Part shown: piece after piece, positions 53,296 to 57,456 of the stretch
How the letters are laid out: the number at the start of each line of letters is the position of its first letter
How positions within the stretch are numbered: the first letter of the stretch is position 1
Sequence record: MW250785
DNA length: 64,000 nt
From: Escherichia phage UPEC03
Direction: 5' to 3' (one strand)
Notes under the pieces: generated by a model
Database searches by the model: none
Told to the model about the DNA's origin: nothing
The model's input: the letters and a program-made list of their open reading frames with translations, nothing else
Program-made: the position numbers and the translations under genes

Positions 53296-54231
53296 TCAAA
53301 AGTCACTTAGTTTTTCATACATACGGGTAAGTTTGCATTCCATGAAGTATTTCTCCATTTTTGCTTTGTTCCCGATTTTTGGAGCATTGTACGCTTCTTC
53401 GATTGCCGTTGCAACATCTTTCGGAATAAAATCAAAGTCGCGAAGTTCTTCGTTTTCTCTGTAGCGGATCGCCCACTCTTCGGGCATACCCACGGTCGGA
53501 TCGTCCGCTTCCAGCCAGGCTTCGAGTTCAGCAGCCCTGATTTGTGGGGCGCGTTCTCCTTCAACCTTCGTAACAATATAGTCATTTCGCATTTTAATGC
53601 AAGCGATACTATCTTTTTTATCGCCCTTGATGATCTTCATGCGCAAATCGTTACGAGGTGAACCATATTTCGGTGTAACCCATTTCTTTTGGGTTGGCGA
53701 CCACTGACGCACACCCTGATATTTTTGAAGGGCTGCAAAGTCACCATCAGCAGAAACGATCAGGACACGTTTACCTTAGGATACCGCTTTACGCGTCACC
53801 ACACCGATCACGTCATCGGCTTCTGCGAAGTCAACACGGATACCTTTGTACGGTAAATTAGCACGGATTTCATCGTATGTCGGGTGAAGGAAACCATTCA
53901 GGCGATCCCAGTCCCAATCCGATGCTTCTTGTTCCATTTTTCGTTTCTTTTTGTAGTACCAGGCTTTACTTCTGCGCCAATACTTGTTATCATCAAAGGC
54001 TAGAACAATTTCAGGGTACTCACCTTTGAATTTAACCACATTGTGACGAATGGTGTCAAGCACTATGTGACGAACAATTTGTTGGTTGATGTCATTCTGG
54101 TCTTTCGGCTTGAAGTTGTTCATCAACGTTGCTACCGAAAGGTTTGAAATATCTATACACATCACATCAACAGGATCATCGTCATTGCTCATTAAGCTGT
54201 TCAGGTTGAACATACTTGCAAATGAAGACAT
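53296..54231 (-). pseudogene. rnh: RNase H (5-prime-3-prime exonuclease) interrupted by an in-frame TAA
   Basis: N-part (53779-54231) and C-part (53296-53712) lie in the same frame and together align collinearly with T4 RNase H; TAA at 53776-53778 sits where T4 has E in FSLEGHK; start set at MSSFASMF with RBS. Confidence 0.8.
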
Positions 54232-54263
54232 TTCAATACCTCGTTGTTGTTGAATGAAACTGA

Positions 54264-54291
54264 TTATAGTGATCACTTTTTCAAAGTCAAT
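54264..54291 (-). promoter_or_regulatory. sigma70-type early promoter driving rnh
   Basis: On the minus strand: TTGACT, 16-nt spacer, TATAAT, about 30 nt upstream of the rnh RBS. Confidence 0.6.
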
Positions 54292-54308
54292 AGATCATTT
54301 CAAAAATC

Positions 54309-54450
54309 TGAGCGAAGCGAAGGACACGAACGTAGTGAGTGTCTATGTACTGAATGTACGTTTTAATATTTTTATATTTTATATATAGAGAAAACAGTAC
54401 ATTTCCGTATACTTTTTAACCAGTTTTAACTATCCGTTTCGCTTCGCTCA
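54309..54450. repeat. 13-bp perfect inverted repeat (tgagcgaagcgaa / ttcgcttcgctca) flanking a 116-bp AT-rich core
   Basis: Left arm 54309-54321, right arm 54438-54450; additional palindromes gtactgaatgtac and gaagcgcttc nearby. Confidence 0.8.
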
Positions 54451-54500
54451 CGGAAGCGCTTCGCGCTGATTTTATTAAATAATATAGATTGGAAGTAGGT

Positions 54501-54529
54501 TTGAAACACCTGATTCAATCGGCTATAAT
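54501..54529 (+). promoter_or_regulatory. sigma70-type early promoter driving gene 55
   Basis: TTGAAA, 17-nt spacer, TATAAT, 25 nt upstream of the gene 55 ATG. Confidence 0.6.
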
Positions 54530-54554
54530 GAATGTATTCAATTTGGAGAATATA

Positions 54555-55070
54555 ATGACTACAAAGATTTATGCAGATAATGATAAGCTGTATCCAGTTA
54601 TGTGTAAGTGGAAACAGCAAATCCGTGAAACTGGTGATCGTAAGATGCCGGATGAACTCGGTATTGCGATTATGAACATTGCTCACGGTTTGGCACGTCG
54701 ATACAACTTCAACCGTTATTCCGAAGACTGGAAAATGGATATGATCGATGATGGAATTTCGGCAACGATTTCCGGCCTTCATAACTTTGACGAAACCAAA
54801 TATACAAACGTCTACGGTTACATCAACAAGGCTTGCTGGCAAGCGTTTGTAACTCGTATTCTCTACGAGAAGAAAGAGAACGCGAAGAAATACAAATACT
54901 TCCTGGAACATGTCTATGACAGCGATGATACTGATATGACCACGATAGCCGATGAAACTTTCATTCAGGATATCCATGACAAACTTAATCAGTATGAAGA
55001 GTCCGCGAAAAAACCCAAAGATAAAATCGAGGTTGTGGACGAATCGCCAACATTGGAAATGTTTCTATGA
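54555..55070 (+). CDS. 55: late-transcription sigma factor
   Basis: Start set at MTTKIY with GGAGAA RBS; GIAIMNIAHGLARRYNF, GLHNFDETKYTN, ADETFIQDIHDKL..YEES match recalled T4 gp55. Confidence 0.9.
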   Translation: MTTKIYADNDKLYPVMCKWKQQIRETGDRKMPDELGIAIMNIAHGLARRYNFNRYSEDWKMDMIDDGISATISGLHNFDETKYTNVYGYINKACWQAFVTRILYEKKENAKKYKYFLEHVYDSDDTDMTTIADETFIQDIHDKLNQYEESAKKPKDKIEVVDESPTLEMFL

Positions 55071-56668: not shown

Positions 56669-56942
56669 CCGTTATGATGAATATTTCGGGGCGAACCCCC
56701 GATATTCTCACCTGTTGCGTATGTTGGGAATGAAACACATCATTTCCACATCCAACGAAGCAGGGGAAACCAGCGCAGTTTGTTTGACCATCATGAAGGG
56801 TGCATGGCATTCATCACGAACATGGTCAATATTCATGCTTGATACACTGGACGACGATACTCTATCATATAGTATTGATTCATCAGTTGTTCAAATGATC
56901 ACTGAATTATGTGAACGGATTTTAAATGAAACTAAAAACTAA
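56661..56942 (+). CDS. hypothetical protein (93 aa)
   Basis: ORF between gene 47 and the HNH gene. Confidence 0.4.
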   Translation: MHSRYDEYFGANPRYSHLLRMLGMKHIISTSNEAGETSAVCLTIMKGAWHSSRTWSIFMLDTLDDDTLSYSIDSSVVQMITELCERILNETKN

Positions 56943-57456
56943 ATCACATGGAGGTGGAAACCGAACAATTGATGATGAAATTTCTTCAATAAATGAACTA
57001 CTTCCTATGTTGGATGTTGATGTTGTATTAGGAAAGATATACTGGAAAAACTCACCTCGTAAGAGCGTCCCTGCTGGAACTGAAGCAGGGAGTAAGACAA
57101 AACATGGTTACGTTGCTATCGGGTATAAAAAGACGTATTATAGACGACATCGAATAATATTTTACGTCGCTAATGGTTATCTTCCTCTCGTAGTAGATCA
57201 CAAACACGGTGTTGAATCTGGTGATGGAATAGATAACCTGCAAGACATCACGCAACAACAAAACTCCGTTAAAATGAGAATGAGTAGAAGGAATTCTTCT
57301 GGGTTTAGAGGGGTTTCCTTTCACCAAAAATCAGGAAAATGGCAATCATGTATTGTGTATAATAGAAAAACAATATATCTTGGTTTGTATGAAACACCAG
57401 AACTTGCACATAGTGCATATACAGACAAGCGAAAAGAATTATTTGGTGAAATATGA
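56926..57456 (+). CDS. HNH homing endonuclease with AP2-type DNA-binding domain
   Basis: 176 aa; GKIYWKN...RHRIIFY...GYLP..VDHKHG...NL then AP2-like GFRGVSFHQKSGKWQSCIVYNRKTIYLGLYETPELAHSAY; paralog of 37753-38250. Confidence 0.75.
   Translation: MKLKTKSHGGGNRTIDDEISSINELLPMLDVDVVLGKIYWKNSPRKSVPAGTEAGSKTKHGYVAIGYKKTYYRRHRIIFYVANGYLPLVVDHKHGVESGDGIDNLQDITQQQNSVKMRMSRRNSSGFRGVSFHQKSGKWQSCIVYNRKTIYLGLYETPELAHSAYTDKRKELFGEI

Follow-up and report, generated by a model that had tools for sequence, protein, structure and literature searches.

A candidate replication origin formed by an AT-rich core and inward-facing DNA mini-hairpins between rnh and gene 55 of RB43-like phages

What does the long non-coding stretch between the divergent genes rnh and 55 of a T4-like phage do? 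We analysed this question in a 64,000-nt stretch of DNA of Escherichia phage UPEC03 (MW250785), referred to as a whole as the window. The window belongs to a Pseudotevenvirus (RB43-like) genome: the region is 99-100% identical to phages of this genus, such as Enterobacter phage EBPL and Cronobacter phage Invicta, and local BLAST aligned the window with about 15.9-77.5 kb of the Invicta genome. The left neighbour of the gap is rnh, the end of a leftward block of replication genes (43...32, 59, 33, dsbA, rnh), and the right neighbour is gene 55, the start of a rightward block (55, 47, 46...). A first-pass annotation had offered four roles for the gap without ranking them: operator sites for a regulator, a replication origin or recombination hotspot, a homing-endonuclease target, or a structured RNA. 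The evidence below favours the second of these. We suggest, with a confidence that stops a little short of even, that the element in the gap acts at the level of DNA as a site of initiation, and that RB43-like phages most likely have three replication origins of which this is one.

Limits of the gap and anatomy of the element

The gap had been described as 278 bp long and non-coding. It is non-coding, but its size and limits had to be revised. The starts of rnh and gene 55 implied by a 278-nt gap fall within the promoters, and the starts given in the RB43 annotation each have a Shine-Dalgarno sequence (rnh, ATG 54231, GAGG; gene 55, ATG 54555, GGAG). Therefore, the non-coding gap is 54232-54554 (323 nt). 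A small ORF called in the gap by some annotators (44 aa, 54254-54388) was rejected because indels between copies of the element break its frame. In a crude scan, the gap is the longest ORF-free stretch of the window, and it is the largest gap in the annotation of a relative over the range of the window. In practice, the element helps to fix the over-extended start codons of rnh and gene 55 in many deposited genomes.

Outward sigma70-like promoters had been proposed at both ends of the gap, and both were found. The early promoter of rnh (TTGACT-16-TATAAT) lies on the minus strand at 54290-54263, matches at 11 of 12 positions and is conserved in RB43. That of gene 55 (TTGAAA-17-TATAAT) lies on the plus strand at 54501-54529 and also matches at 11 of 12 positions.

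The element itself is about 165 nt long and consists of an AT-rich core between inward-facing mini-hairpin arms. Its outermost inverted repeat is formed by an A-run (AAAAT, plus strand, 54303-54307) and a T-run at 54469-54473 (17 nt, 88% complementary). The perfect 13-nt inverted repeat reported earlier, TGAGCGAAGCGAA (54309-54321) and TTCGCTTCGCTCA (54438-54450), 116 nt apart, is present; when the gap was shuffled, 3 of 2000 shuffles contained a perfect repeat of at least 13 nt. The left arm of this repeat belongs to mini-hairpin H1 (CT-GAGCGAAGCGA-AG, plus strand, 54308-54322), which is made up of a GAA triloop, a G-C and a C-G pair, a tandem G.A pair and two closing pairs. It is followed by mini-hairpin H2 (GACAC-GAACGTAGTGA-GTGTC, plus strand, 54323-54343), in which the same 11-nt motif carries a GTA loop and the closing stem covaries. 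Two direct copies of a species-specific 6-8-mer (ATGTACTG and AATGTAC, plus strand, 54345-54359) provide the left half of an inner stem. The right half, CAGTACAT (plus strand, 54395-54402), is complementary to 54345-54352 and completes helix 4.

Between the two halves of the inner stem lies the AT-rich core (54360-54394), a candidate DNA-unwinding element with the conserved sequence TATATTTTATATATAGAGAAAA and invariant alignment columns. No other 40-mer of the window is as rich in A+T as 54360-54399 (87.5%, compared with 55% overall). To the right of the inner stem, a conserved TAnnnT / TTTTTAACC block (plus strand, 54408-54421) has invariant T and C/A columns and contains a weak internal -10-like site; the internal promoter-like site (TAGAGA-16-TATACT) matches at 9 of 12 positions. 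The minus strand of this block reads GGTTAAAAA and contains GTT, the template triplet of T4 primase, with a presumed role at this position.

The right arm mirrors the left on the opposite strand. Mini-hairpin R1 (bottom strand CCGT-GAGCGAAGCGA-AACGG, minus strand, 54434-54453) contains the right arm of the 13-nt repeat, and mini-hairpin R2 (bottom strand AGCGC-GAA-GCGCT, minus strand, 54455-54467) shows compensatory stem changes. Two further palindromes noted earlier, gtactgaatgtac (54347-54359) and gaagcgcttc (54453-54462), are present, but the latter is not conserved as such. What is conserved is the hairpin AGCGC-TTC-GCGCT that overlaps it, with the compensatory stem AACGC/GCGTT in RB43 and JC221, ATGACC/GGTCAT in copy 3 of JC221 and CCGGC/GCCGG in copy 2 of Phynn.

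Three copies of the element at fixed sites

Within the window, we found no further copy of the element or of the 12-mer. The motif GAGCGAAGCGAA, which the first-pass annotation had marked for a search elsewhere in the genome, has no other occurrence in the window, but the element as a whole recurs at two genome sites outside it. Local BLAST placed the three copies in the Invicta genome at 69.07-69.23 kb (copy 1, that of the window, between rnh and gene 55), 139.36-139.52 kb (copy 2, between gene 3 and ORF200) and 174.91-175.07 kb (copy 3, between gene 24 and uvsY). The copies share the layout CACGAACGnAGTGAGTG ... ATGTACTG - TTTATAATATTTATATTTTATATATAGAGAAAA - CAGTACAT - TTCCGTATACTTTTTA, bounded by GAGCGAAGCGA / TCGCTTCGCTC. 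A T4 late promoter, TATAAATA, was considered in the core; it occurs only on the minus strand of copies 2 and 3 in one species and was discarded as not conserved.

Whether the element is conserved in related phages had been left in question, and it is kept at three sites across the genus. These sites are occupied in 64-65 Pseudotevenvirus-group records matched per query, and the arms are 95% and 90% identical to those of RB43, which is the level of the flanking coding DNA. Outside this group, Morganella phage Mm5 has a copy between rnh and gene 55, and Pectobacterium phage POP12 has degenerate motifs and an AT-rich repeat array upstream of uvsY. Among metagenomic T4-like contigs, L162 carries a copy between gene 24 and uvsY and L135 one between gene 3 and ORF200, while in L129, a lineage with a very different gene order, the copy lies between the tail-tube gene and uvsY. 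We found no description of the element in the literature, including the RB43 genome paper and the reviews of the T4 family that were consulted, and searches on the motif strings, on RB43 origins and on Pseudotevenvirus transcriptomes returned nothing relevant. The self-folding arms, the three-copy family, the position near uvsY in distant T4-like phages and the mis-set gene starts had all been missed by the first-pass annotation.

The inner stem, 7-8 bp around the core, is identical in the three copies of one genome and differs between lineages by compensatory changes. It reads ATGTACTG/CAGTACAT in this species, AACTACAT/ATGTAGTT in RB43, ATGTCCAC/GTGGACAT in JC221 and Phynn, and GTACCCT/AGGGTAC in Mm5, and its left half is usually duplicated. 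In the alignment, 95.5% of helix 4 is paired, and double-sided changes affect 5 of the 8 pairs. This pattern fits base pairing together with gene conversion, and it fits a lineage-specific DNA-binding protein equally well. In copy 2 of Citrobacter phage Margaery, exactly the inner stem and core are lost and the arms are intact. Therefore, at least one core is dispensable, as is any single T4 origin, a point that also speaks against an origin function. The deletion is compatible with redundant origins and with hairpins in vivo, and its endpoints at the base of the stem are as expected of hairpin-mediated slippage.

The distribution of the copies bears on explanations in which the element is foreign to the phage. 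A homing-endonuclease target, as suggested earlier, found no support: the same three sites are used genus-wide, no endonuclease gene adjoins any of the gaps and there is no presence/absence pattern. The element could instead be a selfish or neutral palindromic repeat of the MITE or REP type that has spread to three intergenic sites and has no phage function. It has terminal inverted repeats and several dispersed copies, its inner stems are more alike within a genome than between orthologues, suggesting gene conversion, and one core has been lost in Margaery. However, such a repeat would not be expected at the same three sites throughout the genus, with the sites at rnh|55 and upstream of uvsY also occupied in distant T4-like lineages; the flanks contain no target-site duplications and no transposase was found; the arms are conserved to the same degree as coding DNA; and compensatory changes indicate purifying selection on structure. 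We consider a selfish repeat hardly likely at all, and a MITE in particular was rejected on the fixed sites and the lack of duplications. The promoter-stem-loop cassettes (PeSLs) of T4-type phages are another kind of dispersed repeat: short units, present by the tens, that lie in hyperplastic regions and coincide with indels that distinguish close relatives (PMC4122927). Taken together with the gene 55 promoter, the right edge of the element resembles them in placing a GC stem-loop beside a strong sigma70-type early promoter. A PeSL cassette was nevertheless rejected on copy number and location, with three copies at fixed sites of the core genome. The length of about 165 nt, the AT core and the convergent hairpin arrays also set the element apart.

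A self-folding 11-nt motif as the conserved unit

Each arm of the repeat consists of two copies of the self-folding 11-nt motif GA-N-C-GNA-G-N'-GA, a mini-hairpin of the d(GCGAAGC) type; GAGCGAAGCGA and the adjoining GAACG(A/T)AGTGA are one and the same motif. It comprises a GNA triloop closed by a C-G pair, one variable Watson-Crick pair and a tandem G.A pair, with a variable closing stem beyond. In the element of the window, two motifs lie on the plus strand to the left of the core and two on the minus strand to the right. The Invicta genome contains the base-paired motif 14 times, where 1.7 occurrences would be expected, and the three elements account for 10 of the 14.

The orientation of the hairpins follows a strict rule. 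We scanned 27 copies from about ten lineages. In 26 of them, the GNA hairpins number 95, and every one faces the core (50 on the plus strand to its left and 45 on the minus strand to its right), with none reversed. The automatic core call failed in the 27th copy (L129), whose arms were read by eye and stand outside the count of 95. The loop is GAA in 79 hairpins and GTA in 16, with no others, and the C and G of the loop-closing pair are invariant, which fits the rule for the d(GCGNAGC) class that G and A are fixed and N is free (PMC13037366).

The orientation rule is relevant to a function in RNA. The element could encode a small RNA or act as a terminator-promoter cassette of the PeSL type, and TAGAGA-16-TATACT could drive an RNA of about 55 nt. 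On the plus strand, R2 reads as a terminator-like hairpin followed by a T-run, which as RNA would be AGCGC-UUC-GCGCU and a U-run just upstream of the gene 55 promoter; the R2 stem covaries, the T-run is retained in RB43 and JC221, and RNA folding gave a z of -4.6. However, since the GNA loop is on the core-facing strand in all 26 copies, a left-arm "terminator" would read on the opposite strand. Copies 1 and 2 lie between divergent genes and need no terminator, and a T-run is lacking in copy 3. Neither JC221 nor Phynn has kept the internal -10. Moreover, transcripts from the flanking promoters would not include the purine-strand hairpins, since both promoters point away from the element. A search of 54100-54700 against Rfam 15 with E up to 10 gave only noise (best E = 0.62-9.9, unrelated snoRNA models, far below gathering scores). 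The structured RNA proposed earlier thus has little support, and we regard it as highly unlikely.

Base pairing in the element was assessed in an alignment of 14 copies. Paired cells amounted to 94.7%, compared with 77.8% in shuffles, although the copies are related and the structure was derived from the same copies, so that the shuffle statistics overstate the significance. Double-sided changes were found in 11 of 18 pairs, and pairing fell to 20-51% in controls with slid partners. In H1, pairs 8-14 and 9-13 are invariant, and the closing pair 5-17 varies between UA (9 copies) and CG (4 copies); pair 21-40 of H2 is AU in 7 copies and UA in 6. In this species, the closing stem of H2 reads GACAC/GTGTC in copy 1 but TCAC/GTGA in copy 3, and in copy 3 of JC221 the latter extends to TTCAC/GTGAA, with complementarity kept throughout. 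For the right-hand hairpin, the lineages show no fewer than four different stems. In copy 3 of RB16 and Lw1, the two right-arm motifs are swapped and each local hairpin is intact. Because the stems vary yet pair, and because the swapped motifs remain intact, the alignments lead us to conclude that the conserved unit is the local mini-hairpin and not the long-range 13-nt repeat. Furthermore, the GA...GA flanks are non-complementary yet invariant, which points to a hairpin formed by a single purine strand rather than to a duplex palindrome.

These properties also bear on control of transcription, in which the inverted motifs and the species-specific inner repeats would be operators for a DNA-binding protein of phage or host, or would form an insulator, so that the outward promoters serving rnh, 55, uvsY, gene 3 and ORF200 are regulated together. 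All three copies lie directly between or beside outward promoters, TAGATCA motifs containing GATC recur in the flanks, and inner 7-8-mers that are the same within a genome and different between species are expected of co-evolution with a sequence-specific protein. The operator sites proposed in the first-pass annotation may thus lie in these inner repeats. Closing stems of H2 that vary between the copies of one genome and stay complementary indicate base pairing and not duplex recognition, and neither the invariant non-complementary flanks nor the strict strand orientation is expected of duplex operators. In addition, the promoters serve genes expressed at different times, gene 3 being a late one, no gene is served by the leftward promoter of copy 3, and we found no regulator. 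Control of transcription is therefore, in our view, an unlikely explanation.

Another possibility is a programmed break or recombination hotspot. The quasi-palindrome would extrude, or fold during replication, and be cut by a structure-specific nuclease, either endonuclease VII or the SbcCD-like gp46/47, which would seed recombination-dependent replication or rearrangements among the three copies. Copy 3 is a long quasi-palindrome with a folding energy of -77.4 kcal/mol as a single strand (z = -12), Margaery shows a clean loss of the inner palindrome, and copies 1 and 3 lie at gene-order breakpoints relative to T4. The T4 origins reportedly coincide with recombination hotspots, according to Kreuzer and colleagues. 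However, the long-range pairing of the arms is not conserved, as seen in the swaps of RB16 and Lw1, and it is much weaker in copy 1. A hotspot overlaps with an origin and does not exclude it; as the primary function, we consider it quite unlikely, somewhat more so than control of transcription.

A generic nearest-neighbour model for DNA gave arm stabilities indistinguishable from those of shuffles (left arm, z = -0.03; right arm, z = -1.1). With no signal from this model, the special stability of GNA hairpins is taken solely from published measurements, according to which only G-N-A triloops give the mini-hairpin d(GCGNAGC), with a Tm of 70-76 C (PMC13037366). GNA mini-hairpins are found at the primase start sites of G4, St-1 and alpha3, in ssiA of RSF1010 and at N4 early promoters, and they bind SSB poorly (PMC13037366).

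Genome context and a possible mode of origin function

To our knowledge, the only characterised T4 origins are of the MotA-driven R-loop type. MotA is missing from T4 relatives such as RB43, RB49, Aeh1 and many others, for which the element provides three precise, short and mutable candidate start sites. We found no MotA or AsiA in the Invicta genome by tblastn (best E = 2.5 and 0.95), and the element contains no Mot box. RB43 has neither motA nor middle promoters (PMC1524935). Given the lack of MotA, origins of the T4 R-loop type cannot exist in RB43-type phages.

The copies occupy distinctive positions in the genome. Copies 1 and 3 have outward promoters on both sides; at copy 3, the leftward one runs antisense to gene 24 and has been kept in RB43, RB16 and JC221. 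The promoters beside copy 2 are of two kinds: to the right there is an early-like promoter, and to the left a site resembling a late promoter, for gene 3. The Invicta annotation shows four large transcription blocks, and its only two major divergence points are copies 1 and 2. The two minima of the cumulative GC skew (69 kb and about 140 kb) also coincide with copies 1 and 2, although skew minima and divergence points are confounded with transcription direction in T4-like genomes. In T4, oriE, oriF and oriG sit near regions of transcription divergence (PMC3016281). In the T4 record, oriF is located at the start of uvsY, and oriG lies within gene 34, to which its primer RNA is antisense, at a distance of 2.2 kb from rnh.

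We compared the copies with these T4 origins. Copy 3 lies directly upstream of uvsY, as does oriF, and copy 1 is next to rnh, the gene that T4 has 2.2 kb from oriG. A promoter antisense to a late gene is found both at oriG and at copy 3, and several redundant origins near transcription-divergence regions would be common to both phage types. BLAST found no sequence similarity between the three copies and the oriF and oriG regions. The T4 origins differ in having a MotA-dependent middle promoter and a downstream unwinding element that forms an R-loop, whereas the AT core of the element lies behind both strong flanking promoters, and only the weak, non-conserved promoter-like site points into AT-rich DNA.

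From the precedents of other origins and hairpin signals, we infer how the element might work. Early in infection, host RNA polymerase would fire outward from the two flanking promoters. The negative supercoiling that arises between them, together with gyrase, could melt the 35-bp core (about 90% A+T). Each arm, once single-stranded, would fold into two GNA-triloop mini-hairpins, on the plus strand at the left and on the minus strand at the right, and these strands would be the templates for outward synthesis. The hairpins would resist single-strand binding protein and, by their structure, may show where priming or the loading of a helicase is to take place. From the edge of the core, two leading strands would then start and diverge, each co-directional with transcription on its side. 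As to a protein that might read the hairpins, no candidate for an initiator, a dedicated primase or another reader was found among the large hypothetical proteins and the neighbouring ORF. That ORF (ORF200/gp250) was rejected as an initiator, having no Pfam match and belonging to a PHROG family of unknown function. A scan of eight large hypothetical proteins revealed no polymerase or primase domain, and no RNA polymerase is annotated in the Invicta genome.

Among the closest precedents are two origins with inverted signals. At oriV of RSF1010, ssiA and ssiB form inverted repeats of 40 nt, one on each of the complementary strands; unwinding exposes them, and each primes a leading strand a single time, so that two leading strands result (PMC8567376). 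Of the two, ssiA contains the GNA mini-hairpin CCGAAGG (PMC13037366). The likeness to RSF1010 and IncQ plasmids lies in hairpin signals inverted on complementary strands beside an AT-rich region, and this feature is present in the element. RSF1010 also has 20-bp iterons, to which RepC binds, and encodes a helicase (RepA) and a primase (RepB') of its own; in the phages, species-specific 7-8-mers are repeated two or three times around the core and could be iteron-like. The element differs from RSF1010 in carrying two 11-nt motifs with tandem G.A pairs per arm and in occurring in three copies in a 178-kb genome.

In OriS of HSV-1, an AT-rich spacer lies between inverted boxes, and unwinding leads to a GAA-triloop hairpin bound by the origin-binding helicase (PMC12543377). 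The hairpin in OriS*, the activated form of the origin, has a 12-nt stem and a Tm of 71 C (PMC12543377). In copy 1 of RB43 and JC221, the right hairpin, read on its bottom strand, has exactly the sequence of the OriS hairpin, AACGCGAAGCGTT. This identity covers 13 nt of a low-complexity palindrome. The host kingdoms differ, and the resemblance is convergent. OriS is read by the origin-binding helicase UL9 with ICP8, which sets it apart. We know of no homologue of UL9 or ICP8 in RB43-like phages.

Two groups of phage hairpins show other parts of the design. The mini-hairpins of G4, St-1 and alpha3 (GCGAAAGC, GCGTTAGC) stand at primase start points on SSB-coated strands and exclude SSB (PMC13037366), but those genomes are single-stranded and use the signal once, whereas here the DNA is duplex and would have to open first. 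The P1 hairpin of N4 (GTTGC-GAA-GCAAC) is extruded from duplex DNA by gyrase-driven supercoiling (PMC13434306). The element shares with N4 a hairpin of a 5-7-bp stem and a GNA triloop on the template strand. In N4, however, the hairpin is read by a 3500-aa virion RNA polymerase, an enzyme that RB43-like phages do not encode, and single hairpins precede genes, whereas the element has convergent hairpin arrays around an AT-rich core.

The element is built from known parts, in a design that has not been described for T4-family phages. Our best reading, at a little less than even odds, is that it works like paired ssi signals, OriS* or the hairpin promoters of N4, although it does not belong to the ssi or OriS* families. 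More tentatively, T4-family phages without MotA may use a distinct class of origin, in which a transcription-opened AT core is combined with convergent, supercoil-extrudable arrays of GNA mini-hairpins that mark the templates of two outward leading strands. Such a class, held by us with the same reserve, would be the duplex-phage counterpart of ssiA/ssiB of RSF1010 and OriS* of HSV. It would place origins at the uvsY locus, as the equivalent of oriF, and at two transcription-divergence points, a placement that is possible but that we rate somewhat below an even chance. Margaery is a natural variant without one core and makes the question of an origin directly testable.

The 11-nt motif extends beyond these phages. 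Scanning IMG/VR for the H2 motif, we found it in many unrelated contigs, with differing closing stems; a gapped scan of IMG/VR gave mostly chance matches, of which the strand-symmetric ones alone were kept. In one contig with the H2 motif, the N4-like L022, four hairpins of this kind precede early ORFs by 40-60 nt, all on the template strand. This contig shares an identity of 26 nt with copy 2, and given its distance from isolates (at most 37% amino-acid identity to any of them), we took this as convergence and not transfer. A single 11-nt motif, widespread in phage genomes, links DNA mini-hairpins, the hairpin promoters of N4 and ssi priming signals.

Reading frames around copy 1 and between genes 47 and 46

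The start positions of the two genes that flank copy 1 of the element were compared at 54231/54276 (rnh) and 54528/54555 (gene 55) of the window. In several deposited genomes, such as that of the Cronobacter phage Invicta, the annotated start codon is a GTG for rnh and an ATG for gene 55, each of which lies inside the -35/-10 regions of the gene's own promoter. The Shine-Dalgarno sites agree with the RB43 starts, ATG 54231 for rnh and ATG 54555 for gene 55. Furthermore, rnh is cut into two ORFs (53776-54231 and 53296-53712) by an in-frame TAA at codon 152 (53776-53778, minus strand), where Invicta has GAA (Glu). The RNase H may be truly truncated, or the stop codon may stem from a sequencing error.

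A 176-aa ORF with HNH/AP2-like sequence features was found at 56926-57456, and the stretch that holds it (56936-57453) has no alignment to Invicta. The ORF, which lies between genes 47 and 46, was probably inserted there as a homing-endonuclease gene.

Copy 2 of the element and its neighbouring gene

Copy 2 of Citrobacter phage Margaery (L202 150-420) was compared with that of Invicta (L004:39300-39620). The inner stem and the AT-rich core were cleanly deleted in Margaery (~65 alignment columns), and both hairpin arms are intact. Copy 2 directly adjoins Invicta gp250/RB43ORF200w (L004:39539-40381), an early-promoter-driven gene that sits within the late gene 3-gene 2 cluster, on the strand opposite to it; the same pairing was seen in the metagenomic T4-like contig L135. 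The gene belongs to PHROG 7322, whose function is not known, and has no Pfam match.

The uvsY-upstream gap in other phages

Copy 3 lies between gene 24 and uvsY. In Pectobacterium phage POP12, the gap upstream of uvsY (L009 2100-2794, 695 nt) opens with a ~130-nt array of AT-rich direct repeats of ~13 nt each, which look like iterons. Degenerate copies of the mini-hairpin motifs are also present in this gap. The GNA hairpins are absent from the gene 24-uvsY gap (L097 470-800) of KpF2, a member of Slopekvirus, a genus with the RB43 topology. This gap is extremely AT-rich and contains five GATC-containing repeats (TTAGATCA), which the TAGATCA motifs flanking the element in Pseudotevenvirus resemble.

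Mini-hairpins in T4 and other viral sequences

A perfect GAA mini-hairpin, TACAC-GAA-GTGTA, was located in T4 (L012 153061-153073, minus strand), ~25 nt upstream of the oriG promoter's Mot box. It may be a chance occurrence; the expected frequency of hairpins of this kind is ~1 per 10 kb.

The 11-nt motif of the element arms (GA-N-C-GNA-G-N'-GA) occurs in four hairpins of L022, an N4-like IMG/VR contig, at 1400, 2539, 3029, and 5367. These hairpins are on the template strand with early ORFs 40-60 nt downstream, and are presumably virion-RNA-polymerase promoters. In one of them, a run of 26 nucleotides (ACACGAACGAAGTGAGTGTTATGTAC) is identical to part of the T4-like element's copy 2.

Hairpins with GAA/GNA triloops were also observed in dense clusters in L044 (13200-13750), L110, L116, L136, and L142. 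A 94-kb viral contig carries one such cluster as a large palindrome, and in giant-virus MAG contigs the clusters appear as tandem GTGCGAGCGAAGCGAGCAC units.
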